Shown: piece by piece, positions 35,301-61,942 of the stretch | How the letters are laid out: the number at the start of each line of letters is the position of its first letter | How positions within the stretch are numbered: position 1 is the first letter of the stretch | Assembly: GCA_964522525.1 (NCBI GenBank) | Contig: CAZFWG010000015.1 | Location: 1,861-65,860, forward strand | Source: an uncultured Alphaproteobacteria bacterium | GTDB taxonomy: Bacteria; Pseudomonadota; Alphaproteobacteria; JAJFIK01 | Direction of reading: 5' to 3' | DNA length: 64,000 nt | Made by a program: the position numbers and the translations under genes | Notes under the pieces: model-generated | Seen by the model: only the letters and a program-made list of their open reading frames with translations | What the model was told of the DNA's origin: nothing | The model's database searches: none

Positions 35301-37338
35301 GGGCATCACCGCCAAGGGGGCCTGGGAAGCCGTCAAGCGCCATTTCCGTGAACTGGGAACGGATATTCAGTCAACGCCCTTTACTGTTGTCGGTATCGGC
35401 GACATGTCCGGCGATGTCTTCGGCAATGGCATGTTGCTGTCGCGTCAGATCCGGCTCGTCGCGGCGTTCGATCACCGGGACATCTTCATCGACCCCGATC
35501 CGGATCCGGAAACATCCTATGGGGAACGCAAGCGGCTTTTCGATCTGCCGCGTTCGAGTTGGGACGACTACGACAAGACCCTCATTTCAAAGGGTGGGGG
35601 TGTCTTCAGCCGGCAGCGGAAATCCGTGCCCATTTCACCGGAAATCCAGGCGGCGCTGGGCATCACGGAGCGGGCCTTGACGCCCACGGATCTTATCCGG
35701 GCGATCTTACAGGCTTCGGTCGACCTGCTCTGGTTCGGCGGGATCGGCACCTATGTAAAGGCGGAAGGCGAAGCAAATTTCGAAGTCAGCGACCGGACCA
35801 ATGACGGCTTGCGGGTCGATGCCGCCACAGTGCGCGCCCGGGTCGTGGGCGAAGGCGCCAATCTCGGTTTCACTCAGAGGGGCCGCATCGAATACTGCCG
35901 TAAGGGCGGGCGGATCAACATGGATTCGGTGGATAATGCGGCCGGTGTTGATTGTTCTGACCACGAAGTGAATATCAAGGTTGCCCTGAACGCTGTGGTG
36001 GAGGCGGGAAATCTTGACCAGGAAAAGCGGAACCAGCTTCTCGAGGACATGACCGATGATGTGGCGCGTCTCGTCTTGCGCAACAACTATGACCAGACCC
36101 TGGCGCTGACCGTGGCCGAGGGCTGCAATCTGGAGGATTTCGATTCCCATGGACGCTTGATGCGGGTTCTCGAACAAGAGGCCGGTCTGGACCGGGAGGT
36201 TGAATTTCTTCCGCAGGAAGAGGCCGTGGATGAGATGAAGGAACAGGGCAAGGGGCTGACCCGTCCGGAGCTTGCCGTTCTCATGGCCTACACCAAGACC
36301 AATCTGTTCGACACGCTGCTGGCCAGTGATACACCGGATGATCCGTTCCTGGAACGTGATCTGATCGGGTATTTCCCCAAGGTTCTGGGCGAACGCTTCG
36401 CGCCGGCCCTGTGCGGCCATCGGCTGCGCCGGGAAATCATCGCGACCGTGCTGGCCAACGATATCGTCAATAAGGGCGGCCTTACACTGATCAACCGGGT
36501 CGAGGAGAGTATGGGGCTCGCCACGCCCGTGATTGCCAAGGCCTATGTCATCAGCCGGGAGGTCTTCGGTCTCGCGTCCCTCCAGGACCGGATCAACAGT
36601 CTGGATCTGCAGGTGCCGGCTCAAGTGCAGTTGCGCAGCCACCGTCTGGTGATGAATTTTCTCCGGCGCCAGGTTCCCTGGTTCCTGCGTTATCGGCCCA
36701 TGGAGCTACGGATCGGCGAGGCCGTGGAGGCCTATCGCGGTCCGATCCTCCGGCTGTCGAACAGCCTGGAGGCCATGTTGTCACCCTTCGAGATCGAGCA
36801 ACTGGAATATCGTCTTGATGCGGATCGGCGTGACGGTGTGGAAGATACGCTCGGACGCTCCCTGGCGCTTCTCGAGCCGCTTTCCTCCGCGACGGACATC
36901 ATCGATGTCGCCCGCTATTGGAATTGGACTCCGGAATCAACGGCCGTGGCCTATTTCGCCATCGGCGCCGCGCTTGATCTCGACCGGTTGCGGTTTGCTG
37001 CAAAAAATCTGTCATCGGATGAGCATTGGGAGCGTTTGGCCACCAAGCGCGCCGTCGAGGACCTGTTCCGCCAGCAGCGCTTCCTGACGGAAGCTGCGAT
37101 CGGCGAGGCCCTGGAGACAGGTCTGCGGGACGCCGATGGTCAAGCGGCGGTCGATATCTGGCTGCAGCGCAACGAGCGTGAGATCGGACGGATCAACGCC
37201 CTGATCAACGACATGGTTGCGGCGGGTCCGCTGACCGGGGCCAAGCTATCCCTCGCGGGCAGTCAGATCCGTGATTTGATGGCGGCCTTTTCAGGCAACC
37301 GGCGGGGCCTGGGCGAGACTGGCCTTCAAACCATTTAG
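32302..37338 (+). CDS. gdhB: NAD-specific glutamate dehydrogenase (large ~180 kDa GdhB type)
   Basis: Uninterrupted ORF of about 1,680 aa. Catalytic core resembles Bac_GDH (GGIRWSDRPEDFRAEILGLVKAQQVKNAVIVPVGAKGGF; GTATFSDIAN; YDHKKMGITAKGAWE). Ends at TAG 37336-37338. Confidence 0.9.
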   Translation: MATEDSGFSEIRSGVTQASADQPPGNDLASRTEMLSAQLASQQTSHDFAKFVRILYERADGDDLAAYDTDTLLGIARSIFDLMERRRPTERIVRVFNPDRARDHFNGVCTVMQVITDDMPFIIDSVLGELSALDLPIRRILHPILETRRTTDGQRLHVEGAAMVQPGSPAERLARDQGFTRESVLHVEFDRQADPLMHRQIEREINAVLGEVSVVVHDWRQMLDGLEQAIHDLRTHAPFQSGQLEKGEFEETLGFLKWLLDENFAFLGMRDYEIVGDLEEGELVPRQDTGLGLLRDPNARVLRRRGQLVVMTPEVRDFLRQPVPIIVSKANVRSRVHRRVYMDYIGIKRYGPGGQVIGERRLVGLFTAVAYNRSTREIPLLSRKVALVLEKARLPMNAHDERALINILETFPRDELFQASVEEILDSAIGVLRLQKRPHTKIFVRHDRFDRFVAALVYVLRDKYDTNLRVRIGELLARRFEGQVQSFYPSFGDGPMARVYFIISRNVGEMPDVDLKEIEARIDAFTRDWAEDLRVALTKVNGPVRGRELGARYSNGFSAGYRDHFGCADATNDIDVIERLGAYPEIGLRTYRTKLDSDAGLHLKIYHWDTPIPLSDCMPIFENMGLRVIEEVPYAVEAAQDTGLTEAGEDAGGRTVWLHDFITTHASEVPIDLEATREVFEEAFRAVWFGHAENDGFNRLVVEQAMPWRSVVVLRALARFRKQTGVAFSESYIVTALSSQGAIARLLVDLFLCRFDPDFAGTQEAREGRQLEIEAAIEEALDSVSSLDVDRIIRYFLNLIKSALRTNFFQTENDRAKTYLSIKFSSREITDLPEPRPRFEIFVYSPRLEGVHLRGGPVARGGIRWSDRPEDFRAEILGLVKAQQVKNAVIVPVGAKGGFVPKNLPAAGASRDAIMEEAIACYRLFISGLLDLTDNLGDAGVIPAQRVIAYDGHDPYLVVAADKGTATFSDIANDMAEGLGFWLGDAFASGGRTGYDHKKMGITAKGAWEAVKRHFRELGTDIQSTPFTVVGIGDMSGDVFGNGMLLSRQIRLVAAFDHRDIFIDPDPDPETSYGERKRLFDLPRSSWDDYDKTLISKGGGVFSRQRKSVPISPEIQAALGITERALTPTDLIRAILQASVDLLWFGGIGTYVKAEGEANFEVSDRTNDGLRVDAATVRARVVGEGANLGFTQRGRIEYCRKGGRINMDSVDNAAGVDCSDHEVNIKVALNAVVEAGNLDQEKRNQLLEDMTDDVARLVLRNNYDQTLALTVAEGCNLEDFDSHGRLMRVLEQEAGLDREVEFLPQEEAVDEMKEQGKGLTRPELAVLMAYTKTNLFDTLLASDTPDDPFLERDLIGYFPKVLGERFAPALCGHRLRREIIATVLANDIVNKGGLTLINRVEESMGLATPVIAKAYVISREVFGLASLQDRINSLDLQVPAQVQLRSHRLVMNFLRRQVPWFLRYRPMELRIGEAVEAYRGPILRLSNSLEAMLSPFEIEQLEYRLDADRRDGVEDTLGRSLALLEPLSSATDIIDVARYWNWTPESTAVAYFAIGAALDLDRLRFAAKNLSSDEHWERLATKRAVEDLFRQQRFLTEAAIGEALETGLRDADGQAAVDIWLQRNEREIGRINALINDMVAAGPLTGAKLSLAGSQIRDLMAAFSGNRRGLGETGLQTI

Positions 37339-38240
37339 GCTGGTGCTTCCAGCTCGTCCAAGGGCCAGGGCAGGCCGGTCTTCAGTGCACGAAGAAAGAG
37401 CCGCGTTTCGTCGATCGCCTGGGCCGTGAGATCCGGCCGGTAGTCGAACTCAAAGCCGGGCTCGAACTTGGTTTGGTCGAAGGCGTGATCGCCGTCGGGA
37501 AAGAGCTCGGCCTTGATGATCATGCCGCTGGCTTCCAGCCATTCCGCCGCCTGTTGGCAGGCCAGGGCCGAAACGACCCGATCTTTCTGGGGAATGAACA
37601 TGAGGGTTGCCGGCTGGTGGGTCCAGCCTTCCGCCCCGGTCAGGCTAAACGCCCCGCAATAGGGATAAAACAGGATCGTGCCGATGACGCCGTCGCGGAC
37701 CGTTGAGGACGCGGGAGGACGCAGACCCGTCGGTCCTTTCCGCTCCAGATCCATGGCCATCAAATCCATGATGGCCCAGGCGCCGTGCGATTGCCCAAAT
37801 AATACGACGCGCGATGGATCCGCATCGGGAATGTTCTCGATGAGATTGAGCGCGGCCACTACATCGCCGGCGCGTTCCCGGCCCCATAGTCGGCTGCCGG
37901 AACAAATCTCCCGCAAGGCGCGCTGGCGGCTGATGTTGCGGGCGGCAAAACCGTCAACGACGGCGCCGATGAAGCCTTCCTCCGCCGCGACTTGGGCCCA
38001 CGATGTGTGGTGTTCCCGGACCCCGCCACAGCCCGAAAAGATCGCCACGACAGGAAAAGGGCCAGTGCCTTCCGGCCGCATGACGCTGACATGGGGTTCG
38101 AGCGCCTCGACCCACGTCGTGACCGAACGCTTGGTGACGATCCATCCTGTGGCATGGCCATGGAGGACAAGGGCGGTGCCCGTCACCATGAGGGCGATGA
38201 CCGCCAGGCCCGCAATCATGAACCAGCGAAGGATGCGCAT
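37335..38240 (-). CDS. Dienelactone hydrolase family alpha/beta hydrolase, membrane-anchored
   Basis: 301 aa with N-terminal TM anchor. GQSHGAW nucleophile elbow. PDGDHAFD His region. Its stop overlaps the gdhB stop by 4 nt (convergent). Confidence 0.7.
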
Positions 38241-38267
38241 CCCCGTTTTCCCTCCCGTGCCGCGCGG

Positions 38268-39851
38268 TCAGTGGCGGAAATGGCGCAGGCCCGTGAAGAC
38301 CATGGCCACGCCCGCCTCGTTTGCCGCCGCGATGACCTCATCGTCCCGCATGGAGCCGCCCGGCTGAATGACCGCCGTCGCACCCGCCTCGACCGCGGCT
38401 AGCATACCATCGGGAAAGGGAAAAAACGCATCGGATGCCACGACGGAGCCCTTGGTGAGCGGTGCCGGAAGACCGGCGGCCTCGGCCGCGTCCTGGGCCT
38501 TGCGCGCCGCGATCCGCGAGGAATCGAGCCGGCTCATCTGGCCGGCGCCGATGCCGACGGTCGCGCCCGCCTTGGCATAGACGATGGCGTTGGACTTGAC
38601 GTGTTTGGCGACCCGGAAGGCGAACACCATGTCGATCGCCTCCTGGGCGCTGGGCGTGCGTTCTGTGACCACGTTCCAGTCCTGGGCCGTGACCCGGCCC
38701 GTATCGCGGGACTGGACCAGAAAGCCGCCCGCCAGGGTCTTGATCTGATGTCCGGCCGCAACGGGGTCGGGAAGTCCGCCCGTCAGAAGAACGCGCAGGT
38801 TCTTTTTGGCGCCCAGAACGGCGAGGGCTTCTTCATCCGCTTCCGGTGCAATGATCACTTCCGTGAAGATGCTGGAGATCGCCTCCGCCGTCTCCCGGTC
38901 AAGGCGCGTGTTGAGCGCAATGATGCCGCCGAAGGCGCTCACCGGATCACACGCCAGGGCCCGTTCATAAGCGACGCGCGCGGAGGATGCCGTGGCGACG
39001 CCGCAAGGATTCGCGTGCTTGATGATGGCCACGGCCGGCCCCTCGGAGGGATCGAACTCCGCCACGAGTTCAAAGGCCGCATCCGTGTCGTTGAGATTGT
39101 TGTAGCTCAGCGCCTTGCCTTGGATCTGGCGTGCCGTGGCGATGCCCGGACGATGCTCCCCCGTCGTGTAGAACGCGGCCGTTTGATGGGGATTTTCGCC
39201 ATAGCGCAGGGTCTGGGCCAGGCGTCCGGCCAGGGAGCGATGGGCGGGGGCGGCTTCGCCGATCTGCCCGGCGAACCAGGTGCCAATGGCACTGTCATAG
39301 CTGGCCGTGCGGGCGAACGCCTTGGCCGCCAGGGCGCGGCGCAGATCCGCCGTCAGCCCCCCGTCCTTTTCAAGGGCGTCAAGGACACGGTCATAATCAT
39401 CCGGATCCACCACGACCCCGACATGGGCATGGTTCTTGGCCGCCGAGCGGATCATGGCCGGGCCGCCGATGTCGATATTCTCGATCACGGTGTCGAAATC
39501 ACCGCCACCCGCCACCGTTTCCTCGAACGGATAGAGGTTCACGACCAGAAGATCGATGCCGCCGATCCCATGGGTTTCCATGGCCGTTTGGTGGTCGGGC
39601 TTGTCGCGCACCGCCAGCAGGCCCCCGTGGATCATCGGGTGCAGGGTCTTGACCCGGCCGTCCATAATTTACGGAAAACCCGTCACGTCCGACCCCACGC
39701 GCACCGCGAGCCCGGCCTAGGCCAGGGTCCGTGCCGACCCGCCGGTCGAGACCAACTCGACGCCGGCGGCGCTCAGTCTCTGGCAAAGCTCGACCAGGCC
39801 CGTCTTGTCCGACACGGACAAAAGAGCCCGTTTGATCCGTATGGTGGACAT
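38268..39851 (-). pseudogene. purH: purH, interrupted by two in-frame stop codons near the 5' end
   Basis: Minus-strand frame reads [44 protein letters not shown][TAG]AGLAVRVGSDVTGFP[TAA][16 protein letters not shown]... and then 465 aa of intact AICAR transformylase domain to TGA at 38268. The TAG is at plus-strand 39717-39719 and the TAA at 39669-39671, each where PurH proteins as I recall them have Glu (..LAEAG.., ..GFPEMMDGR..). Elsewhere in the window TAG and TAA act as ordinary stops (TAG in gdhB and the first histidine kinase; TAA for the dienelactone hydrolase). Confidence 0.7.
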
Positions 39852-39929
39852 TGCTGTCTCTCCTCGTCTCGCGTGATGGCACCGACTGGCCTTGGCGGCG
39901 GTTCATAGGCTGCGCTCAAGAAGCCCTTG

Positions 39930-41909
39930 TCAATGGACCCGTTCCGGCCGCCTCGCCGTGAGGGCGCGGTGCCGTTTTTTGGAGGACCGGACCGCCGAAA
40001 GGGGCGGCTCGGTCCTTTGGGGGCGGTGTGGGGGGTCGACTGCCGGGCGTTGTATCTGCTTGGCGAGAAAGGAGGGCGCCAGCGCGTCATGGGGATGGAT
40101 CACGTCCGGATCGGGCCGCGCCCAGACCGGGGTCGGGTCGTGGATCGGCGGCATCTCATCCTCCAAGTCCTCCGTTATCGGATGGACCAGCGGGTCGTCA
40201 CCTTGGACCACCCATCGAATGACCGTGGTGTGTCCCTCGACCCGGGCATGAACGACCATCTGGCGGGAAACGCGCAGCCGGTCCTGTTCATCGAAATAGG
40301 GGCTTTCCTCGAGCGCCAGGGCGCCACCCGCTGCCCTGAAGCGCCAGCCGCGACCGCTGGGCAGGGCCAAATGGATCGACTTGCCGTCCGCCGACAGATG
40401 GGGGTCCACGTCGGGATGGAGATGAAAGCGCACCGCAAAGGACAGGCCCTTTCGGCGAAAGCGTCGGGGCATGTCCTGAATGCGCGCGAGCATGTCTTCG
40501 CCCCGGAGATCGGTGCCCCCTTCGGAAACATAGATCCGTCGCCGGTGGATCAGACCGAAACGCCGCCCATAACCGTCATGGGAGGCTTCCAGCAGGGTGC
40601 CCGGCTCCCGATCGCTGCGCTCCGTCGGGACGTCGCTCGGCCCGATGATCACGCGGCCGTCGCCCCATTTTCCGCTCGCGTCGAGCGCCAGGAAGGAGCA
40701 GCTCGACGTATCGCCGACCGTCACCGTCGAATGGGCCGCCGTCGCCCGCAACACATGGCGCCATCCTGGCCCATGGCGGTCCGTGGCGCCGCAATTGACG
40801 ATGATCCGTTCGGGGCCGGCGCTCATTTCAAAGGACAGACATCCGGCATGGGCCTCGACGGCGGGGTTGCCGATATTGGGCGTGCCGGTGTCCATGATCA
40901 CGACCACATCGCCGCGCTTGATGCGCTGATAGCCGGATTGGACCGCCCGCCACAAGGGCTGGCCTTCGCCTTCGTTCATGGCCAGGGCCGCGTCCATTTC
41001 GCGGCGAACGAGCCGGTGGCCGCCATTGAAGGCCGCCGGGCATCCGTCGCCATGGCGGAAGAAGCGCACCATCGGCCCCATGCGGTCGAGCGCGCGCTGC
41101 AGGGCTTCCGGCCGGTCCGTGTGGAAATGATCAAGCGCGCGGGTCAGGGTCATGAGGTCCAGGAAAAGGCGCGCGAGCACGGCCGGATTGCGGCTGATAT
41201 GGCCACCATCGGGCAGGATCTGTTGGTCCAGGGCATCAAGCGTGAGGGCGAGACCACTTTCCAGGCGCCGTCGGCCATGGGGCAGGCACAAACCGGTCAA
41301 AGCCAGACCCATGGCCCCGACGAGTTTCGGTTCACCGTCCGCTGCAAGGGATACCGCCTGGTGGAGATGGTGGGACTGGCGGGCGATCGACCGAAAAAAC
41401 GCCGAACGCCAGATCAGGTCAGATCCTTTAAGAACCATGCGGTGATGGCACAGCCAGGACGACAGACGCCGGGCAATAACCTGGGGCGCCCAGGCGACCG
41501 GATCCCAGTCATTGCATTCATAAATCCAGGAACTGATCAGCCAGCGGGCATGTTCACCGGCCAGGTCCGGGCCCAGGGTGGAGAGATGGCGCATCCAGGT
41601 GAAACCGTTCAGGCATTCGCGCCAGCGGGCATTGCCCGGGGCGGCATGCCAGGGCGCCACTCCGGGTGGCACCCGAACAAGGCCGCCGCTGTCGAGGGCA
41701 TAGGTGCCGCCATGGAGATCTTCGGCGGTGCGGGTGTCGATGGGGCGGGGGTCGGACGGTGCGTAGAGCACTCGGTCGGGTATTGGACCGGTCCACCCGG
41801 TCACATCGCTCGTGGCCAGAAGGGTCCGTGCCCCCAAATGCGCACCGGCCCTTGTTGCTCTTGTTCCTGCAATGGTCGCCCAACCCTGCGCCCAGGCTGC
41901 AATCGTCAT
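39930..41909 (-). CDS. Heparinase II/III family protein
   Basis: About 660 aa from MTIAAWAQGW (ORF extends to 42104 with no upstream stop). N-terminal alginate-lyase-like domain plus C-terminal heparinase II/III-like domain (HGHADALSFE-like region NCGATDRHGPGWRHV...). Confidence 0.7.
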   Translation of the reverse strand: MTIAAWAQGWATIAGTRATRAGAHLGARTLLATSDVTGWTGPIPDRVLYAPSDPRPIDTRTAEDLHGGTYALDSGGLVRVPPGVAPWHAAPGNARWRECLNGFTWMRHLSTLGPDLAGEHARWLISSWIYECNDWDPVAWAPQVIARRLSSWLCHHRMVLKGSDLIWRSAFFRSIARQSHHLHQAVSLAADGEPKLVGAMGLALTGLCLPHGRRRLESGLALTLDALDQQILPDGGHISRNPAVLARLFLDLMTLTRALDHFHTDRPEALQRALDRMGPMVRFFRHGDGCPAAFNGGHRLVRREMDAALAMNEGEGQPLWRAVQSGYQRIKRGDVVVIMDTGTPNIGNPAVEAHAGCLSFEMSAGPERIIVNCGATDRHGPGWRHVLRATAAHSTVTVGDTSSCSFLALDASGKWGDGRVIIGPSDVPTERSDREPGTLLEASHDGYGRRFGLIHRRRIYVSEGGTDLRGEDMLARIQDMPRRFRRKGLSFAVRFHLHPDVDPHLSADGKSIHLALPSGRGWRFRAAGGALALEESPYFDEQDRLRVSRQMVVHARVEGHTTVIRWVVQGDDPLVHPITEDLEDEMPPIHDPTPVWARPDPDVIHPHDALAPSFLAKQIQRPAVDPPHRPQRTEPPLSAVRSSKKRHRALTARRPERVH

Positions 41910-41931
41910 CGGCTCCTCCGACGCCGCGGGA

Positions 41932-42597
41932 TCACGCCGTCCCGCGAAGCCGTTTGATGTTGTCCGCGTAAGCGCCGGCGCCGCCCTTGAAGGTGGCCGT
42001 GCCAGCGACCAGAACGCGGGCGCCCGCCTCGATGGCGCGCGGGGCCGTCTCGAAATTGATGCCGCCATCGACTTCCAGGGCGATCGGCCGACCGGTCTGG
42101 TCAATCCGTTCCCGCAAGGAGCGGATCTTGTCGAGTTGGCCGTCGATGAAGGCTTGGCCGCCGAAACCGGGATTGACGCTCATGACCAGGATCAGATCGA
42201 GATCGGGCAGCACATAGTCGATGGCCTCGATCGGCGTTGCCGGATTGAGGGCGACGCCCGCTTTCGCACCGGCCGCCTTGATACGTTGAATGGTGCGATG
42301 GAGATGGGCGCCCGCTTCCGGATGGACGGTGATGATGTTGGCGCCGGCTTCGATGAAGGCGTCGATATAGGGATCGACCGGCGCGATCATCAGATGGACG
42401 TCGAAGGGGACATCTGTGTGCGGACGCAACGCCTTCACCACACCCGGTCCGATGGTGAGGTTGGGCACGAAATGACCGTCCATCACATCGATATGAATAT
42501 AGTCCGCGCCCGCCTGCGCTACGGCCGTAACTTCTTCTCCGAGCCTTGCGAAGTCCGCAGAGAGAATCGAAGGGGCAATTTGTACATCACTAGACAT
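41932..42597 (-). CDS. rpe: Ribulose-phosphate 3-epimerase
   Basis: 221 aa. [17 protein letters not shown]...[16 protein letters not shown]...DVHLMI...[14 protein letters not shown]...EVDGGI is essentially the canonical Rpe sequence. Confidence 0.9.
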
Positions 42598-42794
42598 GGC
42601 TGAGGCTTACCACTCTGTCCCATAATAGAGCAAGATATACTGTCCGATTTTGAGCCACCCACATCATGTTGTGGGCGTTCCGGGCGGTATTGTCGAAGAA
42701 TTCGGATCGAAATCGGTCCGTTCAAGAAGCTTCCGGTGGGGTAATCAACCCAGAGCTGTCGATTCGGTTCTTCTTTGGGGAGGCCCGCACCCTT

Positions 42795-44090
42795 CTAGAG
42801 CCTGGTGATTCGCGCGGCATAGAAGCCGTCGAGGCCGCCCAGATCCGACCACAAACAGGGCAGCGTGCGCAGGTCCCCTTCCGGGGTGACCGCTTCCGCA
42901 AAATCGTTGATTTCACTCGGATCCACGGGCATCCGACGGGCGGCCGGTTGGTCCGCCAGGAGGTGCTCCACCCGCTCCGGGCCCTCTTCCGGTTGGAGGG
43001 AACATGTGCAATAGATCAGTGTGCCGCCTGTCTTGAGGTGGCGGAACGCGGTGTCGAGCAGGCGGTCCTGCGCCGCCGCCAGGGCCGTCACATCCTGGGG
43101 ATGCTTGAGATGGGCAATGTCCGGATGGCGCCGGATGGTGCCCGTCGCACTGCACGGGGCATCGAGGAGAATGGCCTCGGCCGGCTGTTCCGGCGCCCAT
43201 TGCGTGGCATCCATCTCGATAAGCTCCGCCTGCAGATGGAGACGGTCAAGGTTCTCGTGGACCCGCGCCAGCCGGTTCCTGGAGCGGTCCATGGCAAAGA
43301 CATGGGCGCCGAGACTGGCGAGCTGCGCGGTCTTGCCGCCAGGGGCCGCGCAGAGATCATAGATCGTCTGCCCTGAAATTTTCCGGAACAGCCGGATCGG
43401 CAGGGCGGCGGCGGCGTCCTGAACCCACCAGGCCCCCTCATCGAACCCCTCAAGGGTTCGTACATCCGCAAGCCCCCGCCTTAAGGTGCCTGTGGGCAGG
43501 ACCCTCGCCTCCAGCCTCCCGGACCAGTCCTCCGGGTTTGCCCGGACCCACAGATCCAGGGACGGTTCCTCAAGATGATGCGCGGCGATCGCCCGCGCGG
43601 TGTCCTCGCCATAGGCGGCCGCCCAGCTGTCCCAAAGCCAGTCGGGCGTGTTCAAGCGTGGGGCATCCTGACCTTGGGCGATCTCCTGGCCCCGTTCCGC
43701 CACCTTGCGCAAAACCGCATTGACGAGGCCCCGATAGCGCTGATCGGGCACGAGCGCCACGGTTTCACCCACGCCAGCATGGGGCGCCACGTCCAGGAAC
43801 ACGAGCTGGGCCGCGCCGATGCGCAACAGGTCATTGACCTTTGCCGCATTGGCCGGAAGCGGACGGTCCAGAAATGTTTCCAGAATGGCGTCGATCTGGC
43901 CAAGCCGTCTCAGACTTGTGGCAATCAAGGCGCGCGCAAAGCCCCGGTCACGGGGGGCCAGCGTTCCGAGACCACGGTTGTGCAAGGCATCCGCCCAGAC
44001 ATCGTCAAGGGGGCGGTGTTTGCGCAAGACCTGTCCTAGACAGAAAAGAGCGGCGCTTCGGGCGTCGCCTTGGGGGCTCTTTGTGGTCAT
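42795..44090 (-). CDS. rsmB: 16S rRNA (cytosine967-C5)-methyltransferase RsmB/Sun family
   Basis: About 432 aa from MTTKSPQGD. NusB-like N-terminal domain. SAM site DLCAAPGGKT. Catalytic DAPCSATG and TLIYCTCS (conserved Cys pair). Confidence 0.8.
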   Translation of the reverse strand: MTTKSPQGDARSAALFCLGQVLRKHRPLDDVWADALHNRGLGTLAPRDRGFARALIATSLRRLGQIDAILETFLDRPLPANAAKVNDLLRIGAAQLVFLDVAPHAGVGETVALVPDQRYRGLVNAVLRKVAERGQEIAQGQDAPRLNTPDWLWDSWAAAYGEDTARAIAAHHLEEPSLDLWVRANPEDWSGRLEARVLPTGTLRRGLADVRTLEGFDEGAWWVQDAAAALPIRLFRKISGQTIYDLCAAPGGKTAQLASLGAHVFAMDRSRNRLARVHENLDRLHLQAELIEMDATQWAPEQPAEAILLDAPCSATGTIRRHPDIAHLKHPQDVTALAAAQDRLLDTAFRHLKTGGTLIYCTCSLQPEEGPERVEHLLADQPAARRMPVDPSEINDFAEAVTPEGDLRTLPCLWSDLGGLDGFYAARITRL

Positions 44091-44097
44091 GCCTCGG

Positions 44098-44970
44098 TCA
44101 TGACCACGGACTGGTGCCGCGATCACCGCCCTGGGCCATGCGCTCCAGCGCCGCAATGCGATTGGCGGTGTTCGGATGGGTCGAGAAAAGCTTGTCCATG
44201 GCCTGTTCATGGAGTGGATTGATGATGAACATATGGGCGGTGGCGGGATTCCGCTCCGCCGAGACATTGGTGATGCCCTTCGCGGCCTGTTCGATTTTCG
44301 CCAGGGCCGAGGCCAGCCAAAGGGGCCGTCCGCAGATCTCGGCGCCGCCACGATCCGCTTCATATTCCCGGGACCGGCTGATCGCCATCTGCACGAGCGC
44401 GGCCGCGATGGGCGCCAGGATCATCAGCGCCAAGAGGCCGACAATCCCCAGCGGACTGTTGCGGTTGTTGCCGAAGAACAGGGCGAAATTGGCCAGCATG
44501 GAAATCGCGCCGGCCAAGGTCGCCGTGATCGTCATGATCAGCGTGTCCCGGTTCTTGATATGCGCCAGTTCATGGGCCATGACGCCCGCGACTTCTTCCT
44601 CGCTCAACATGCGCAGGAGGCCTGTCGTCGCGGCGACCGCCGCATGGTTCGGGTCCCGTCCCGTGGCGAAGGCATTGGGCTGATCGTTTTGGATGATGTA
44701 GACCTTGGGCAGGGGCAGATCGGCATTGCGGGCCAATTGGTGCACCATGCGGACGAGTTGCGGCGCCGTCGATTCATTCACCTCCTGGGCGCCATACATG
44801 CCCAGGACCATCTTGTCGGAATTCCAATAGGCGAAAAGATTGGTGCCGGCCGCAAACAGGAAAGCCAGAACCATGCCCATCTCACCGCCGATCAGAAACC
44901 CGATCCCGAGAAACAAGGCGGTCATCGCCGCCATCAGCATGCCGGTGCGCAGATAGTTCATAGTCGCCAA
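44098..44970 (-). CDS. htpX: Zinc metalloprotease HtpX (M48 family)
   Basis: 290 aa. N-terminal TM helices. [10 protein letters not shown] zinc site (HExxH). EYEAD downstream. Highly conserved HtpX N-terminus [16 protein letters not shown]. Confidence 0.9.
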
Positions 44971-45098
44971 TCCTTTGGAGCGGTTGAAGCGTAAAACCCT
45001 GCAGAATCCTCGCTTCTACAATGTCCACATAAGAAGTGGGGCCGCTGCGATCAAGCGGATCGGCGCGTGTCTCAGGTATCGACAAGAAAGGCCAGACC

Positions 45099-45320
45099 AT
45101 GAGCGACGAAAAATCGACCCCATCGGGGGCGGCGCCCGACAAGGTGCTGTCGCCGGCCGCCATCCGTGCGCTCGAGGAGGCGGCGGCGCGCCGCAAGGCG
45201 GAGGAAGAAAAGAAGAAAGATGAAAAAAAGAAGAAACCCAAAGAGGTGGATGGGCGTGACGGTCTTGAGCCGACGCGTTACGGGGACTGGGAAATCAAGG
45301 GAACGGCCTGTGACTTTTGA
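45099..45320 (+). CDS. DUF1674 family small protein (SDHAF4-like)
   Basis: 73 aa from MSDEKSTP. Lys/Glu-rich middle. Conserved C-terminus EPTRYGDWEIKGTACDF. Confidence 0.65.
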   Translation: MSDEKSTPSGAAPDKVLSPAAIRALEEAAARRKAEEEKKKDEKKKKPKEVDGRDGLEPTRYGDWEIKGTACDF

Positions 45321-45540
45321 TCATGCTCCGTGGTCAAACGGACCATGGAGACGTCTCTTGAAAGGGCCACGCGGAACGGTATGGGTTGCGGCGCCGCCAC
45401 AACTGGCACCGCCGGCTCCCGAAGACAAGGTCGTCGCAGGTATAGCGGGCTTTGTCGCCGGCGGGCTCATGGCTGCAGGACGGAGCAAAGCATCTTTCTC
45501 AGATCGTCGACAAGAAGATGGCTGGGTTCAAAAACCAAAG

Positions 45541-45573
45541 CCCCTGGCATTTGCCAGGGGCTTTTTTCATGAA
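45541..45573. terminator. Bidirectional rho-independent terminator between convergent genes
   Basis: GCCCCTGGCA-TTT-GCCAGGGGC perfect 10-bp stem flanked by an A-tract upstream and TTTTTT downstream, placed between the DUF1674 gene (+) and the 45613-46290 gene (-). Confidence 0.6.
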
Positions 45574-45612
45574 CACGGGAAGCGCGTTAAAGGAAGAAAA
45601 GAGCGGCGTGGC

Positions 45613-46290
45613 CTACTCGATCCAGAAGCCGCGTTCCTCGAGATAGCCGAGCATGGAGGGATGCAAGGCCACGCCTGCATCGCCGCTTTCCGTCACGAGG
45701 GAAGTCAGCTTCAGACTGTCCTGACGGGTCGTATTCTGGGAGAAGCCGCTCTGAATGGTCTGGCGGGCCATGTCGTAGTCGATGCCGAAGATCCGCAGTT
45801 TCTCGGCCAGATTGCCGGGTCCGATACCGCCCTGGAACGACATGCCGTCGGAGAGAATGGTCAGCTTGCCATCGGGGGTGCGGTCGAAGAAGGCGCTGAA
45901 GCTGCGATTGTGGAAACGCAGATAGATGTCGCCGCCCACCGGGCCGTTCGCCACCTGGGACAGGATTTTGTAGCCGAAACACGGGGCCTGCGTATCGTTG
46001 CAGATGGGGATCATCAGCATTTCGACATTTTTGTCGTTGCGGACCTGCACGGCTTCGCGTCCGTTCTCGAAACGCAGAACCTGAGCCTGCAATCCGGCCT
46101 GGCTCACGACCTGTACCATTTGGGCAGGCGTCAGGGCCTGAATGATCGAGGCTTGCTGTTGTGGTTGTTGGGGCTGAGGTTGGGCGGGCTGGTCGCCGAA
46201 AAGCGGATCCCCGCTTTGGGCCCAAGCCAAGGAAACAGAAGCGCAGAGTGCCAAAGCGGTTCCGGCGAGTATCGTAGACGATCGAGTCAT
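45613..46290 (-). CDS. Secreted hypothetical protein (signal peptide, Gln/Pro-rich linker; possibly YbjN-like fold)
   Basis: 225 aa. Signal peptide ILAGTALALCASVSLAWA. PAQPQPQQPQQQ linker. No enzymatic motif recognised. Confidence 0.5.
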   Translation of the reverse strand: MTRSSTILAGTALALCASVSLAWAQSGDPLFGDQPAQPQPQQPQQQASIIQALTPAQMVQVVSQAGLQAQVLRFENGREAVQVRNDKNVEMLMIPICNDTQAPCFGYKILSQVANGPVGGDIYLRFHNRSFSAFFDRTPDGKLTILSDGMSFQGGIGPGNLAEKLRIFGIDYDMARQTIQSGFSQNTTRQDSLKLTSLVTESGDAGVALHPSMLGYLEERGFWIE

Positions 46291-46626
46291 TGCTTACCCC
46301 TTGGTGCCCCCGTCCGTGATTCCCGTATTGGCCTGGAAGCGCCTATATCTGTGATCCCGGCGCTTTCAGATCTGTCGCGGGAAGCAAGCCATTGCTGCCT
46401 GTCCCACCCACCGAAAACGCCGATCCGTCCGAGCCAGGCGAGGGTCCCCCTGGCCAGCCGTTCGGCGTTTCCAAACCACACCACGGATTACCACCCTTGC
46501 CCCACCGGCGTTCTCACTGCCTTTGCGGCCCGCCGCCAATGTGGCAAGGGTTCCGATCGCTCTACCCGTTCGGTGGAGCGAAAGGGCTAACCCTTCGGTC
46601 CTTCAAAGCTCCGTGAAACAGGCGCC

Positions 46627-47973
46627 TTAGTCAATGGGTATGGCAACCAGTTCCGGTCGTTCCAGGCCGGTTGCACGCCGCACCCGGGCAAGAACATGGC
46701 TCCGGTTTCCGACCTGCTTCAGCAACTGGCCAAGCCGACGGGCATCCGTGACCGGCGTGCCGTCGACCTCCAACAGGACATCGCCGGGCAGGAGCCGCCC
46801 GAACAGCGGGCTTTCCGGTTCGACCCGGGTGACGAGGATGCCCGGCGTACCGCTTTTGCCGCCGGTGCGGGATGGCATGCCTGTCCTGTGGAGGTCGGCT
46901 TCGTTGCCCGCGCCTCGTGCGGTTTCCAGGACCGCCATGGTTTGATTGAGGCGGCCCATGGTGATCACGACATTGCGGGCGCCGACGCCGCGCCGCCAGA
47001 TTTCGGCGGAAACCTGCGCCCCGGACTGCGTCTCCGCCACGAGCCTTTGGAACTGGCGCACATCCACGACCGCCTGCCCGTTGAAGGATAGGATCACGTC
47101 GCCGCGCCGGATGCCGGCCACGGCCGCCGGTCCCCCGGGCGTGAGGTCATTGACCAGGACGCCGCGCACCGTTGGCAGACCGACCGCCTCGGCCAGTTCC
47201 GGTGTCATGGATTGGGGAATGACCCCGATCCAGCCCCGTCGCGACTGACCAAATTGGCGGATCTGATCGGTCACGGGTTCGGCGATGGCCGAAGGACGGG
47301 AGAAGTTGATCCCCTGGAAGATGCGGTCCTGGACCCGCTCCAGGGCGGCGGTGTTCACGCCGATGACTTCGCCCTTCAGATTGAAGAGCGGTCCGCCGGA
47401 GTTGCCCGCGTTGATGGCCGCGTCCGTCTGGAGATATTCGTCAAAGGGGCCGCCGGCCCGCGTGGCCCGGTCGGTGGCGGAAATGATACCCACCGTCACC
47501 GTGCCGCCGAGGCCCGCCGGGTTGCCGATGGCCAGCACCCAGTCACCGGGTTCGAGGGCATCGGAATCGCCCCAGGGCACCGCCGGCAGACCGCTTACCT
47601 CGTCGATCTTGAGCACCGCCAGATCCGTCAGCCGGTCGCGCCCCCGGACCCGGACCTCATAGACGCGCCCGTCGGTCAGTCGCACGGCGATCTGTCGCGC
47701 CCCTCGGATGACATGTTCATTGGTGACGACCCAGCCCGACGGATCCACGATGAACCCGGAGCCCCTGGAGACTCCCCGATTGTTCAAGGCGAAAATCTGA
47801 ACGACGGCCGGGCGCAGCCGCGCCGCCAAGGGCGCAAAACTTTGGGGCAGGGGCCTTGCGCCTTGGGCCTGGGCGGTGTCGGGCCGCGCGATCACCCCAA
47901 GGGGCGCGGCCAACAGCGCAAGGATCAATGCCTTGAGCGCCACAATTGTCAGACTGGCGCGGATGGTTTCCAT
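46627..47973 (-). CDS. Periplasmic serine endoprotease, DegP/HtrA family (trypsin domain + 2 PDZ)
   Basis: About 448 aa from METIRASL. Signal peptide. Catalytic His in VVTNEHVI, Asp in TDLAVLKID, Ser in GNSGGPLFN. Two PDZ-like regions. Confidence 0.85.
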   Translation of the reverse strand: METIRASLTIVALKALILALLAAPLGVIARPDTAQAQGARPLPQSFAPLAARLRPAVVQIFALNNRGVSRGSGFIVDPSGWVVTNEHVIRGARQIAVRLTDGRVYEVRVRGRDRLTDLAVLKIDEVSGLPAVPWGDSDALEPGDWVLAIGNPAGLGGTVTVGIISATDRATRAGGPFDEYLQTDAAINAGNSGGPLFNLKGEVIGVNTAALERVQDRIFQGINFSRPSAIAEPVTDQIRQFGQSRRGWIGVIPQSMTPELAEAVGLPTVRGVLVNDLTPGGPAAVAGIRRGDVILSFNGQAVVDVRQFQRLVAETQSGAQVSAEIWRRGVGARNVVITMGRLNQTMAVLETARGAGNEADLHRTGMPSRTGGKSGTPGILVTRVEPESPLFGRLLPGDVLLEVDGTPVTDARRLGQLLKQVGNRSHVLARVRRATGLERPELVAIPID

Positions 47974-48102
47974 CGGTCGACGCGTAGTTCTCTGGAACAT
48001 TTCCTTACCCCCGAGCGGTCAATCGGTGCGTGAGTATAGCCGCAAGGCGCTGCACTGATAAGCCATTGGGGACGCCTGCGCCTCGCTTTTGTTGCCCCGT
48101 TC

Positions 48103-50091
48103 TCAAGGCTTCCGCCTGGCCGCCAGGGGATTGGGGACCTGCCGAAAAACAGCGTTCTGGCTCTGTCGTAATCGCATGGTCAGCAGGCACTTGACCTCCA
48201 TATGAGGCCCTCGGACGATTTGGCGAATGCTCCCGGCCGCCTGCGCCATCAGGCCCGATGCGGCGGCTTCTGTCTGGTGCGCCTTATCCGCATCATGAAG
48301 GGTTTCATCGATCAACGCCTCGGTGGCGGCGACAAGAACCTCGAAGAGACGCGGCAGTTCAGTGCCGAACCCGGCATTGATGACATGGGCGAGGGGGATG
48401 AGGTGGCTCATGAAAGTGGTGTGGGCGAGCTGCCGGACCGGCATGTCCAGATCCCCATGGAGACCGCGACGTATGGGATGGATCTGTCTGCTGACGTCAT
48501 AACCGCGCGCACGCAGCAGCGGTTCAAAGATCTCGAGACCGCCATTGATGTCCCGGTAGACCATGGCCCGCGGGTGGCCGTCGGCTCCGAAAACCATGTC
48601 GATATTCTGCTGGTGGGATTCGAGGCTGACCCCATAGCGCAGCAACATGCCGATATCGCACTGAAGGACGAGGCGGACATAGGCGGCATAATAGGTTGCT
48701 GCCGTTCGCTCATCATGGACGCTTGCGGCGCGCATGACGTCGATGAACAGTCGTTCGGTCGAAAGGGGCGAAACCGCGAAAAGCGCGTTCAGGGGAAGGC
48801 GTCTTTCATCTTGACCCACCATGCGGGCCGGATTGGCCTTGAAAACGGCGGCAAGCTGATAGCCCGCGTCATAGTCAGCGCCTTCTTGGTCCTGGCCCCA
48901 ATAGATCGCTGCCGGTTCCGGCACGACTCTCAGATATGCCGCCAGACCTTTCTCCTTTGACAGAATATCGGTCAGCAGATCGGAATAGACCGGCGCGTTG
49001 AACGCGCGGGCGGGCGCCAGGGTGCGCACCACGCTTGTCATCTGAATGTTCAAGGTGGTCTTGATCGAAGGTTGGGTGACGGATCGCGGCGGCACAAGCG
49101 TCCGATAGGACAGGGTCGGAATCTGGGGGATGGTCACATCGGGCGCCATCACAATGTCGCCGGCACGAAGTTCGGGCGCGAAACGGCTCTCGATTTCCGG
49201 GACCTGAAGGGGGTGCACGGGCAAGGGGAGATAGGCGGCTGCCGCGCCGGGTTCTCTTGCCTGTTCAATGTGGTCCTTCCAGTGCTGGTGGGCGTCCGGA
49301 AAAGCGGTCTCAAAGAAATCCCGAAAGTCCCTTGGCGCCGTGTTTCCGCTCCAGCTCTGTATGCTGAGTTTCGTGGTCACCCGATCCGCTTTGACGGCCA
49401 GGACCACCAAAGGAACCAGGGGGCCGAACTCAGGCGCGCTGCCCTCAATTTCCGCAACGGACAAGGGACGGCGCGCGCTGGCCTGCGTGGGGCATCGCAA
49501 TCTTGTCTTTGCGGTCGGATGGGTCCTGTGTCCACTGAAACTGGCCAGGCGCAACAGAAAGCCGTCGATGCCCGCCGCACTTTGGCCGAAGGCATCGAAG
49601 GCCTCGGGCGAGGCAAACAGCGGTGTGAACAGATTGTCCCTATCGGCATGGGTGGCGCGAAGGTCCCGGTGGAGGGCGTGGCGCGCTTCGGCGGCAAGGG
49701 TTTCATTCCTGTGGGAATCACCGACTTCCACCAGAAAGGACTCCCAATCCCATGCCGGTTCCTGCCCTGGCGCGGCTTTGTCCGACAGTTTGCGGGCCAG
49801 CCCCTCAAGCCAGGTCAGAGGTTGCCAAAGGGGCCACGGCGTTGCGTCCATATGCAGGATCGCTCCATGGACCCGCCCCGGATCCATCGTATAGAGCGCA
49901 TTGAACAGGTCGTCCGCATTGTGAAGGAGGCGCGATTCCGGCGGATCACCCACGGTCAGTTCGACGTGGGAGCCGGGGCTGAGCAGTCCTTCGCCCATGA
50001 AGCCATGGACGAGGCGCAGGCCTAGGCGAAGGCCCGCAAAAAACGCCGGATCCGGACCGGTTTGCGCGACCGGTGTCGTCGATAGCGCCAT
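48103..50091 (-). CDS. IucA/IucC family (NRPS-independent siderophore synthetase-like) protein with C-terminal FhuF-like domain
   Basis: 662 aa. GHRTHPTAKTRLR resembles the H-P-x-x-K-x-R motif. ESHQQNIDMVF resembles the E-x-H-x-QN motif. The general architecture fits NIS synthetases. Confidence 0.7.
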   Translation of the reverse strand: MALSTTPVAQTGPDPAFFAGLRLGLRLVHGFMGEGLLSPGSHVELTVGDPPESRLLHNADDLFNALYTMDPGRVHGAILHMDATPWPLWQPLTWLEGLARKLSDKAAPGQEPAWDWESFLVEVGDSHRNETLAAEARHALHRDLRATHADRDNLFTPLFASPEAFDAFGQSAAGIDGFLLRLASFSGHRTHPTAKTRLRCPTQASARRPLSVAEIEGSAPEFGPLVPLVVLAVKADRVTTKLSIQSWSGNTAPRDFRDFFETAFPDAHQHWKDHIEQAREPGAAAAYLPLPVHPLQVPEIESRFAPELRAGDIVMAPDVTIPQIPTLSYRTLVPPRSVTQPSIKTTLNIQMTSVVRTLAPARAFNAPVYSDLLTDILSKEKGLAAYLRVVPEPAAIYWGQDQEGADYDAGYQLAAVFKANPARMVGQDERRLPLNALFAVSPLSTERLFIDVMRAASVHDERTAATYYAAYVRLVLQCDIGMLLRYGVSLESHQQNIDMVFGADGHPRAMVYRDINGGLEIFEPLLRARGYDVSRQIHPIRRGLHGDLDMPVRQLAHTTFMSHLIPLAHVINAGFGTELPRLFEVLVAATEALIDETLHDADKAHQTEAAASGLMAQAAGSIRQIVRGPHMEVKCLLTMRLRQSQNAVFRQVPNPLAARRKP

Positions 50092-51006: not shown

Positions 51007-52965
51007 CTAGTTCCGATTCTGGCGGTTCTCGATCAGATCGTCCACCACGGATGGATCGGCCAGGGTCGAGGTGTCGCCGAGATTGTCGAAACTGTCCTCG
51101 GCAATTTTGCGCAAAATCCGCCGCATGATCTTGCCCGACCGGGTCTTGGGCAGGCCTGGCGAGAACTGGATCAGGTCCGGTGAGGCGATGGGGCCGATCT
51201 CCGTGCGCACCCATTTGACGAGTTCCTTGCGCAACTCCTCCGTGGGCTGTTCACCGACCGCCAGCGTGACATAGGCATAGATGCCCTGTCCCTTGATGTC
51301 GTGGGGATAACCGACGACCGCCGCCTCGGCGACCTTGGGATGGGCCACAAGAGCGCTTTCGACTTCGGCCGTTCCCATGCGGTGGCCGGAGACATTGATT
51401 ACGTCATCGACGCGGCCCGTGATCCAGTAATAGCCGTCCGCGTCCCGGCGGCAGCCGTCGCCGGTGAAATATTTGCCCGGATAGGCCGAGAAATAGGTCT
51501 GCACGAACCGTTCGTGGTCCCCATAGACGGTGCGCATCTGCCCCGGCCAGCTTTCCGCCAGGACCAGATTGCCTTCCGTGGGGCCGTCCAGGACCTGACC
51601 GGTCGCATCGACGATCTCCGGTACGATGCCGAAAAAGGGCTTGGTGGCCGACCCGGGCTTGAGGTCCGTGGCGCCGGGCAGGGGCGTGATCAGGATGCCG
51701 CCGGGCTCCGTCTGCCACCAGGTATCGACAATGGGGCATCGCCCATCGCCCACGACCCGGTGATACCAGTTCCAGGCTTCCGGATTGATCGGCTCACCGA
51801 CGCTGCCCAGGAGGCGAAGGCTTTCGCGCGACGTGGCCGTCACGGGCCCGTCGCCTTCGCGCATCAGGGCACGGATCGCCGTGGGTGCCGTGTAGAAGAT
51901 GTTGACCTTGTGTTTGTCGACCACTTCCCAGAAGCGTGAGGAGGTCGGATAGTTGGGCACGCCCTCGAACATCAAGGTGGTGGCGCCGTTGGCGAGCGGG
52001 CCATAGACAATATAGCTGTGGCCTGTGACCCAGCCCACATCCGCCGTACACCAATAGACATCACCCGGATGGTAGTCGAAAATCGTCTCATGGGTGAAGG
52101 CGGCGTAGGTGAGATAGCCGCCCGAGGTGTGGAGGACGCCCTTGGGCTTGCCGGTGGACCCTGACGTATAGAGAATAAAAAGCGGGTCTTCCGCGCTCAT
52201 CTCTTCCGGCGGACAGCCGGCCGGCATGGTCTCCATCGCCTCGTGGTACCAGACGTCCCGGTCCGGCTCCATGTTCACCTCGCCGCCCGTGCGCCACACC
52301 ACGATGACGCTGTCGACATTGGGGCAGTCCTTGAGGGCCTCGTCGGTATTGCGCTTCAAGGGCACGGTGCGCCCGCCGCGTACGCCTTCATCGGCGGTGA
52401 TCACACAGGTGCTGTCGCAATCCTGGATCCGGTTCGCGAGGCTGTCGGGGGAAAATCCGCCGAACACGACGGAATGGATGGCGCCGATCCGGGCACAGGC
52501 CAGCATGGCATAGGCCGCTTCCGGGATCATGGGCAGATAGATCGTCACCCGATCGCCCTTCTTTACGCCCCGCGACTTGAGCACATTGGCGAGGCGGCAG
52601 ACCCGGTCATAAAGCTGGTGATAAGTGATGTGTTGTTGATGCTCCGGGTCGTCGCCTTCCCAGATGATGGCGACCTGATCGCCCCGCGCGGCCAAGTGGC
52701 GGTCGACGCAATTGGCGGAGACGTTCAGGGTGCCGTCCTCGTACCATTTGATCGAGACATTATGCGGGTCATAGGAGACGTTGCGCACGGTCGAATAAGG
52801 CTTGATCCAGTCGATCCGTTTGCCGATCTCGCCCCAGAAACCCTCCGGGTCCTGGATGCTGCGGTCGTACATCTCCTTATAGCGGGCGGCGTCGACATGG
52901 GCGCGGCTTTGCCACGCGGCAGGAACGGGATGAAGAGCGGCGTCTTGGTCTTGGCTCGGCGACAT
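51007..52965 (-). CDS. acs: Acetyl-coenzyme A synthetase
   Basis: 652 aa from MSPSQDQD with a [23 protein letters not shown]-binding motif. [16 protein letters not shown]-terminal SGKIMRR. Near-canonical Acs. Confidence 0.9.
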
Positions 52966-53078
52966 GGTGTTTCCTCCAGGCGAATTCCCAACCCCAGTGT
53001 TGCTGACCCCGTTTGCGATCGGGCGGATACGGGCAACCCGGGCCAACCCCTGATTGGACTGGCCCGGTATCGGATCGC

Positions 53079-54893
53079 TTAATGACCCATGGCGGGTCCG
53101 GAGCCGTCGGCCTCCATGGTACCACCGGGCACCCGGATATTGTCGACCAGTTCCTGGACTTCGGCCGGGGGCGGCGCAGTGACGGCTGATACCACGAAGG
53201 CGACGATGAAATTGATCACCATGCCGACGGAGCCGATCCCTTCCGGCGAGATCCCGAACAGCCAATTGTCAGGCGTGTTCGGGACCCACTCGAAGATCTT
53301 GAAGGCCGAGATGTAGGTTGCCGTGAAGGCAAGGCCGACAAGCATCCCGGCGATCACCCCTTCTCGGTTCATGCGCCGGGAAAAGATCCCGAGGAAGATG
53401 GCCGGGAACAGGGACGAGGCCGCCAGACCGAACGCGAAGGCCACGACGGCCGCCACGAAATCCGGGGGATAGATCCCGGCGAGGCCTGCGACGATGATCG
53501 CCACCACGGCGGCAAAGCGGGCCCAGGCCAATTCCTCCCCGTCACTCATATCGGGACGGAACATCTTCTTCATGATGTCGTGGGACACGGCCGAGGAAAT
53601 CACCAGCAGAAGCCCCGCCGCTGTCGACAGCGCGGCCGCGATGCCGCCCGCCGCCACGAGCGCGATGACCCAGCCCGGCAGACCCGCAATTTCCGGATTG
53701 GCCAGCACGATGATGTCCCGGTCGATATAGACTTCGTTGTCGTTGGCCGTGGGTTCGTTTTCCACGAGGCGCTGGCCATATTGGCCCCGTGCGAGGGAGG
53801 AGTCTGAGGGCGCGGAGAAGACCGGCTTCACCGGAGTCATGGCATTGCCCGGTCCGTATTGAATGCGGCCGTCATCGTTCTTGTCGGTCCAGGCAAGCAG
53901 ACCTGAGTTTTCCCATGTCTTGAACCAGCCCGGCACTTCCTCCGCATAGGCCTTTTCGTGGACCGTATCGATGAAATTGAGCCGCGCGAAAGCCGCGACG
54001 GCGGGGGCGGTGGTGTAAAGAATGGCGATGAAGACGAGCGCCCAGCCGGCCGAGATCCGCGCATCAGACGCCTTGGGCACCGTGAAGAACCGGACGATCA
54101 CATGGGGCAGGCCCGCTGTGCCCACCATCAAGGCCAGGGCGATGGCGAAGACATCGATGGTCGCTTTCTGGCCTTGGGTATAGGCGGGAAAGCCCAGTTC
54201 CACAAGCGTCCGATCGAGCTTGGCCAGGACGGACACGCCCTCCCCGCCCAGAACATCGGCGCCAAGGCCGAGTTGGGGCAGGGGGACGCCGGTGATGAGC
54301 AGGGAGATGAAGATCGCCGGCACCGTATAGGCGAAAATCAGCACGCAATATTGGGCCACCTGGGTGTAGGTGATGCCGCGCATGCCGCCCAGCACGGCGT
54401 AAAAGAACACAATGAACATGCCGATGATCACGCCGACATTGATGTCGACCTGGAGGAAGTTGGAGAAAACGATCCCCACACCCCGCATCTGTCCGGCCAC
54501 ATAGGTGAAGGAAACGAAGATCAGGCAGAGCACCGCGACCGCGCGGGCGGCCTGGGAATAGTACCGGGAGCCGATGAAGTCCGGCACCGTGAACTGCCCG
54601 AACTTGCGCAAATAGGGCGCCAGCAAGAGGGCGAGGAGCACATAGCCGCCCGTCCAGCCCAAGAGATAGACCGCGCCGTCCCGGCCGATAAAGGCGATGA
54701 TGCCGGCCATGGAGAGGAAGGAGGCAGCACTCATCCAGTCGGCGGCCGTCGCCATGCCGTTGAGGACGGGATGCACATGACCGCCCGCGACGTAGAATTC
54801 GCTCGTCGAGGCCACCCTCGACCACCAGGCAATGCCGATATAAAGGGCAAATGATGCGCCCACGAATATATAAGTGAGTGTTTGTGTGTCCAT
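53079..54893 (-). CDS. actP: Cation/acetate symporter ActP (sodium:solute symporter family)
   Basis: 604 aa, 13-14 TM. Conserved ActP N-terminus [34 protein letters not shown]. Sits immediately upstream of acs and downstream of DUF4212. Confidence 0.9.
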
Positions 54894-54914
54894 GACCCTG
54901 TTTCCCCCTTTTTA

Positions 54915-61776: not shown

Positions 61777-61942
61777 TCCCTTTCGCTTCCCCCGGCAGGA
61801 GTCTGGAAAGAAATCTTAGGCATTCATGACCTGTCCCGGCGCGGAGCCCGCCTCCGTGTCCATCGCTTTGCCAAGCCGTTCGGGTCCTTTGCCCATGCGC
61901 CATGGGCGGATCTGTGCGGATCAGCCCGTGAAAGATGCCGCC

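Follow-up and report, generated by a model that had tools for sequence, protein, structure and literature searches.

The purH gene in the window, by which we mean the whole 64-kb stretch of DNA analysed, carries two in-frame stop codons that form part of a 54-nt patch of five base changes. This patch is private to the window record and differs in mutational and conservation signature from the natural variation surrounding it. Judging from comparison with near-identical assemblies and with the protein family, the stops probably belong to a local sequencing or assembly error in the public contig, a technical cause that we infer, and the patch most likely represents no real biological feature.

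The purH locus in the window and in near-identical assemblies

The features discussed are collected in Table 1. In agreement with a preliminary description of this DNA, both the layout of the frame and its translation place an in-frame TAG and an in-frame TAA at Glu codons of purH, and the frame following TAA runs uninterrupted for 465 codons, from +39665 to the TGA at 38270-38268 that also closes the frame opened at the native ATG (+39851). The TAG of codon 45 lies 48 nt upstream of the TAA. Both stops are present in the public record, where the 465-aa product (P0002) was called on a 67,350-bp NCBI contig; seven other window proteins are recorded on the same contig, six of which also occur in Logan assemblies. 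Exact look-ups of the 465-aa product and of the 44-aa product encoded upstream of the TAG found no other assembly carrying either.

Table 1. Positions of the purH features, the five patch changes and other genes in the window
Feature	Position	Strand	Remarks
purH full reading frame, 528 codons including the TGA stop	38268..39851	-	interrupted at codons 45 and 61 (translation)
Shine-Dalgarno-like GAGGAGAG	39858..39865	-	6 nt upstream of the native purH ATG; read directly from the sequence
In-frame TAG, purH codon 45	39717..39719	-	relatives: GAG (Glu)
In-frame TAA, purH codon 61	39669..39671	-	relatives: GAA (Glu)
N-terminal remnant ORF, 44 codons, native purH start to TAG	39717..39851	-	
465-codon ORF from Met63	38268..39665	-	AICARFT_IMPCHas domain complete; MGS domain reduced to its second half
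Patch of five window-private transversions (E45*, E52V, V53G, E61*, M62I)	39666..39719	-	from comparison with L081 and L082
E45*, GAG>TAG	39719 (plus strand)		plus-strand base A
E52V, GAG>GTG	39697 (plus strand)		plus-strand base A
V53G, GTG>GGG	39694 (plus strand)		plus-strand base C
E61*, GAA>TAA	39671 (plus strand)		plus-strand base A
M62I, ATG>ATT	39666 (plus strand)		plus-strand base A
Naturally polymorphic purH tract	38673..38964	-	19 differences from both Logan contigs in ~300 nt, mostly synonymous
Upstream neighbour, heparinase II/III-like, 659 aa	39930..41909	-	Pfam PF07940
Downstream neighbour, dienelactone-hydrolase-like, 301 aa	37335..38240	-	ends in TAA; exact protein also in Logan SRR6462993
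NAD-specific glutamate dehydrogenase (NAD-GDH), very large, 1689 aa	32269-37338	+	full set of ACT and helical-motif domains
557-aa protein with C-terminal Mitofilin (Mic60-like) domain	61826-63499	+	between HEM4 (hemD-like) and HemY_N genes
Cluster of acetyl-CoA synthetase, sodium:solute symporter and DUF4212 small membrane protein	51007-55253	-	
GDSL-family lipase fused to RTX calcium-binding repeats	5463-7085	+	

Two independent assemblies of the same species were available for comparison with purH, namely a 10,902-bp Logan contig from SRR6462985 (L081), aligned to window positions 49104..38203 with 99.68% identity over 10,902 nt, and a 7,001-bp Logan contig from SRR6462995 (L082), aligned to positions 42397..35397 with 99.43% identity over 7,001 nt, both alignments being gap-free. 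Both contigs encode an intact 527-aa PurH, with GAG at codon 45, GAA at codon 61, and E52, V53 and M62 between and beside them. The comparison with close relatives that the preliminary description had proposed thus returned an intact gene in two assemblies 99.4-99.7% identical to the window, and it bore out the proposal that each stop equals a first-position G>T change, since these nearest relatives read GAG and GAA at the two sites. In the collections searched, the organism was otherwise seen in three runs only (SRR6462985, SRR6462993 and SRR6462995), and the Logan contig of SRR6462993, the run closest to the window strain, breaks inside purH at 38602. The window is a third haplotype, whose purH departs from both Logan contigs in its 3' part, and no intact copy of its exact purH haplotype was found in the collections searched. 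Exact look-up likewise found no contig encoding the window's heparinase-like allele. JGI metagenomes gave no match to either of two exact DNA patterns, the first with the five variable sites set to N and the second drawn from the sequence just upstream of the patch. Relatives of purH elsewhere in genome contigs had at most 70% identity among the matches listed, and a protein search with the N-terminal 246 aa returned proteins of 243-431 aa, again with at most 70% identity among the matches listed.

With Glu at both stops, the 527-aa conceptual product scored 759.7 bits against NF002049 (cutoff 402, profile positions 4-510) and 675.4 bits against TIGR00355 (cutoff 528, profile positions 1-511); the product predicted in this way is a bifunctional PurH, matched at full length by both equivalog models. 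The closest solved structure is PurH of M. tuberculosis (3ZZM, E 3e-143), and the window product shares with such bifunctional enzymes the architecture of an MGS-like and an AICARFT_IMPCHas domain and aligns end to end with 3ZZM. In the intact relative P0001, the MGS domain (PF02142) occupies residues 18-131 and AICARFT_IMPCHas (PF01808) residues 137-451, and reading the stops as Glu yields both domains from the window DNA as well. The frame as deposited differs from bifunctional PurH, however, in being broken by TAG at codon 45 and TAA at codon 61 and in placing V52 and G53 at family sites that hold D/E and V/I, respectively. As written, the deposited window purH is a disrupted member of the PurH family. 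The truncation had been expected to strike the MGS-like/IMP cyclohydrolase domain, and Pfam analysis confirmed that the first half of this domain is removed: the 465-aa ORF alone covers only positions 50-93 of the MGS profile, with 23.7 bits against a cutoff of 24.1.

The 465-aa ORF could be taken as the remaining product of a real and partly functional allele, in which translation terminates at TAG and TAA and re-initiates at the ATG at +39665 to give an AICAR-transformylase-only protein, IMP cyclohydrolase being supplied from elsewhere. This ATG lies 3 nt past the TAA, the ORF contains the whole AICARFT_IMPCHas domain, and stand-alone AICAR transformylases (NF005492/PRK07106), found in organisms with a separate IMP cyclohydrolase, do exist and hold the same transformylase domain. 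We nevertheless regard this reading as very improbable. The ORF scored only 166.7 bits against NF005492, whose cutoff is 415, and it differs from stand-alone enzymes in that half of the MGS domain is present and the bifunctional model is matched from position 62 onward, so that the predicted 465-aa product is a truncated bifunctional PurH and no member of the stand-alone AICARFT family. Direct reading of the sequence before the ATG at +39665 revealed no Shine-Dalgarno-like sequence, whereas the native start has one; ribosomes would in addition have to cope with the earlier termination at the upstream TAG; the 99.4-99.7% identical relatives retain the full gene; and a Pfam survey found no PurO-like gene in the window.

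A patch of five private transversions

Over the first 887 nt of purH, the window and L081 differ at the five patch sites only. L082 has the same bases as L081 at all five sites and shows two singleton changes of its own within these 887 nt. If five substitutions were placed uniformly in 887 nt, the probability of their falling within ≤54 nt would be ~4.5e-5. All five patch changes are transversions, compared with 11 of the 30 other differences between the window and L081 (Fisher p = 0.013), and four of the five belong to the G<->T / A<->C class, compared with 3 of those 30 (p = 0.003). This class is typical of oxidative-damage and base-calling artefacts and probably also dominates four-colour base-calling errors. 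Read on the coding strand, three patch changes are G>T, one is T>G and one is A>T. None of the five is synonymous, and all alter the protein. The preliminary description had regarded everything apart from the two stops as intact, a view that the comparison overturned, for three further nonsynonymous transversions (E52V, V53G and M62I) lie in the same 54 nt; that three additional damaging transversions accompany the stops points to an error patch rather than to two independent hits.

Across 118 PurH homologues, position 61 is Glu in all 118 (the GFPE motif), position 53 is V/I in all 118 against Gly in the window, position 52 is D/E in 117 against Val in the window, and position 45 is D/E in 95; the window states at positions 45, 52, 53 and 61 were seen in none of the 118. 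M62I is the sole patch change that is a normal variant among PurH homologues. The stop at codon 45 also runs against a compositional preference of the region: CTAG occurs 16 times in the 64-kb window compared with ~218 occurrences expected from base composition, a ~14-fold avoidance, and the TAG change creates one of these 16 tetranucleotides.

As a side observation, the hexamer CCTAGG is present in the window only at 39716 and 50021, and the site at 39716, made by the TAG stop, forms the perfect palindrome GGCCTAGGCC.

Origin of the patch

The remainder of the window allele provided an internal control. Beyond the patch, purH differs from the Logan contigs in the polymorphic tract listed in Table 1 and at one further 3' site (+38318, window E512). 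Of the 18 codons changed in the 3' part, 11 carry synonymous and 7 nonsynonymous changes, and each of the seven residues in the window recurs in other PurH proteins, Ala312 (118/118 homologues) and Thr330 (114/118) among them. Since every one of these residues is known in PurH and most changes are synonymous, the allele appears to have been under purifying selection until essentially now, and on this comparison only the 54-nt patch departs from the apparently selected pattern. At codon 312 (L081:10186-10191, and L082), it is both Logan assemblies that have Gly, whereas the window and the 118 other homologues have Ala; Gly312 is apparently an unusual but real substitution in otherwise intact alleles.

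The tract itself is set in sequence that is otherwise ~99.9% identical; in the window it carries the family-consensus residues, and it looks like a strain-level recombination tract or a mosaic allele. Two further window-private micro-clusters, each of three changes in 6 nt, lie in the heparinase II/III-like gene at 40809-40814 and 40290-40295; each amounts to one amino-acid change (A366P and I539F, respectively) plus one synonymous change, both window residues are known in homologues, and the micro-clusters look like natural multi-nucleotide polymorphisms.

The same control bears on the proposal that purH is an established pseudogene of a lineage that salvages purines and is reducing its genome. 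Apart from the stops themselves, nothing agrees with this proposal. Relatives 99.4-99.7% identical have the intact gene, the rest of the window gene keeps the family-invariant residues with mainly synonymous differences, and the window shows ordinary gene density with no other gene visibly broken. Shared disruptions and a gene-wide relaxation of constraint, by which an evolved pseudogene is recognised, were not seen, the stops being private to the window record. We therefore give long-standing pseudogenisation hardly any credence.

A comparably slight chance attaches to readthrough or suppression, in which TAG and TAA would be decoded as an amino acid and full-length PurH would be made. Both stops are one base away from a Glu codon, and a Glu-inserting suppressor is formally conceivable. 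It would, however, have to act on two different stop codons, both of which are ordinary terminators in the window: TAG and TAA each end ~8 of ~40 confident ORFs. The preliminary description had argued from the NAD-GDH gene, ending in TAG, and the dienelactone hydrolase gene, ending in TAA, that neither codon is reassigned, and both endings were verified, the NAD-GDH TAG standing 21 codons past a complete C-terminal domain. It had also proposed a search for suppressor tRNA genes, which we carried out for the 64-kb window; no tRNA gene was present there, and Rfam families, searched for a riboswitch or suppressor tRNA, gave no match. The site has no unusual secondary structure (z = -0.42), the stops are absent even from the 99.4-99.7% identical relatives, and even with full suppression V52 and G53 would remain at invariant sites. 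None of the marks of programmed recoding or suppression was thus found, whether a conserved stop, a tRNA or signal in the window, or a codon spared as terminator.

A genuine, very recent loss-of-function purH allele, arising from one clustered mutation event in one strain, has more in its favour, yet we still consider it unlikely. A short single-stranded patch might, for example, have suffered oxidative damage or been repaired in an error-prone way, and the assembler would have captured the resulting haplotype. The stops are in the deposited record, the window haplotype is distinct from the intact Logan alleles, and 8-oxoG lesions leave G>T and T>G changes in vivo as well. The number of stops, two in five changes, also exceeds what random error predicts: a random substitution at this locus makes a stop in about 2% of cases, which gives P ~0.003 for at least two in five, or ~0.02 if only G>T substitutions are considered, although the choice of the site for its stops introduces an ascertainment bias that exaggerates the excess at P ~0.003. 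On the other side, five substitutions would have to fall within 54 nt while the remaining 833 of the first 887 nt stayed identical to L081; the window shows no further pseudogene; and no other assembly has the 465-aa or 44-aa products. Multi-hit clusters as dense as this arise naturally far less often than assemblies acquire local errors.

We therefore return to a local error as the probable origin of the patch. Five wrong bases (+39719, 39697, 39694, 39671 and 39666) would have been introduced during sequencing or assembly of the source contig, which is apparently an unannotated metagenome-derived assembly, and the likely cause would be that reads with poor support were drawn into the consensus at a locus differing between several strains. 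In the organism itself the codons at these places are most probably GAG, GAG-GTG, GAA and ATG, and the gene product a normal 527-aa PurH. Nowhere in the compared sequence do strains vary more than in the stretch that contains the patch. In total, 31.2 kb of the window is covered by eleven Logan contigs, with identities of 99.0-100% (at least 99.4% save for one contig with a divergent end), and no second comparable patch was found in these 31.2 kb; Pfam scans of ~40 further window ORFs found no other gene split by a stop. As the rest of the assembly looks clean, a general explanation by low quality does not apply.

Local errors that not a single read supports are documented in metagenome assemblies (Chen et al. 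2020, PMC7111523), and many internal-stop 'pseudogenes' in public genomes are assembly artefacts (Cooley & Wright 2024, PMC11017572). Like such errors, the window patch differs from every close assembly, damages a conserved gene and lies at a strain-variable locus of an unannotated contig. Such errors are defined by missing read support, and the patch, which is likened to them from sequence comparison, differs in being isolated within a contig that otherwise looks accurate. G>T / C>A changes constitute the oxidative-damage (8-oxoG) class of sequencing artefact (Costello et al. 2013, PMC3616734), into which the three G>T changes and the one T>G change on the coding strand fit, whereas the A>T change falls outside it. 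Artefacts of this class are normally scattered, low in frequency and removed by consensus, and a cluster of five would require very low local support.

Three further points count against an error: the patch is internal to a 67-kb contig and not at one of its ends; the window is a distinct haplotype of which no intact exact copy was found; and two stops among five random changes are unusual at the probabilities given above, an improbability much of which is explained by the choice of the site for its stops. The preliminary description had listed error, pseudogenisation, readthrough and re-initiation without ranking them. Error is the one we favour, pseudogenisation fails on the intact relatives and the conserved remainder of the allele, and readthrough and re-initiation gained no positive support.

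Several other mechanisms were considered and rejected. For a templated mutation no donor was found, the search for an ectopic or quasi-palindromic source of the patch having matched only chance 9-12-mers, and the region folds no better than shuffled sequence. Palindrome-driven change would show a consistent pattern, yet the TAG perfects GGCCTAGGCC while the TAA destroys TTTCCGGAAA. The changed bases (G, A, T, G and G) are not adenine-specific as in a diversity-generating retroelement, and deaminase editing is contradicted by the fact that all five changes are transversions. Compensating frameshifts are incompatible with the gap-free alignments, and cross-mapping of reads from another species would have brought in the Glu codons of a foreign purH, not stops.

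Consequences and neighbouring genes

If the patch is an artefact, the public contig carries a false purH 'pseudogene', and the truncated 465-aa P0002 in the protein collection could mislead metabolic reconstruction into predicting purine auxotrophy. The contrast between a dense cluster of private nonsynonymous transversions at family-invariant residues and naturally patterned variation in the same gene would then offer a way of recognising such errors that does not depend on reads. In the less likely event that the patch is real, a single clustered event with an oxidative-type G>T / T>G spectrum would have inactivated purH in one member strain of a free-living alphaproteobacterial population. 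Such a strain, a natural purine auxotroph, would survive on purines obtained by cross-feeding, might accumulate AICAR (ZMP) and would perhaps make an AICARFT-only fragment by re-initiation at Met63; on a small scale the case would illustrate how clustered mutagenesis can give rise to an auxotroph in the wild, and it would be no new kind of system.

A heparinase II/III-like homologue was found in 65 of the 82 purH-centred loci that we fetched (L001-L082, mostly Alphaproteobacteria), a conserved synteny, and the window shares this upstream neighbour with these bifunctional PurH loci. On the other side, the NAD-GDH and dienelactone-hydrolase-like genes are convergent, with a 4-nt overlap of their 3' ends.

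Some additional observations concern other parts of the window. One Logan contig with a divergent end (L090:1-150, window 23929-24072) shows 38 mismatches and 2 gaps in ~140 nt; a second contig, L091, ends just before this stretch, which only L090 covers, and the divergent end looks like a contig-end chimera in the Logan assembly rather than a fault in the window sequence. Beyond the HEM4 gene, counting from the gene with the Mitofilin domain, lie tsaD and gpsA, neighbours that were seen in L087. The cluster at 51007-55253 resembles known acetate-uptake gene clusters. Finally, the fusion of a GDSL lipase to RTX repeats suggests a secreted enzyme, and a 642-aa antisense ORF (5340-7268) that overlaps the lipase gene is probably spurious.
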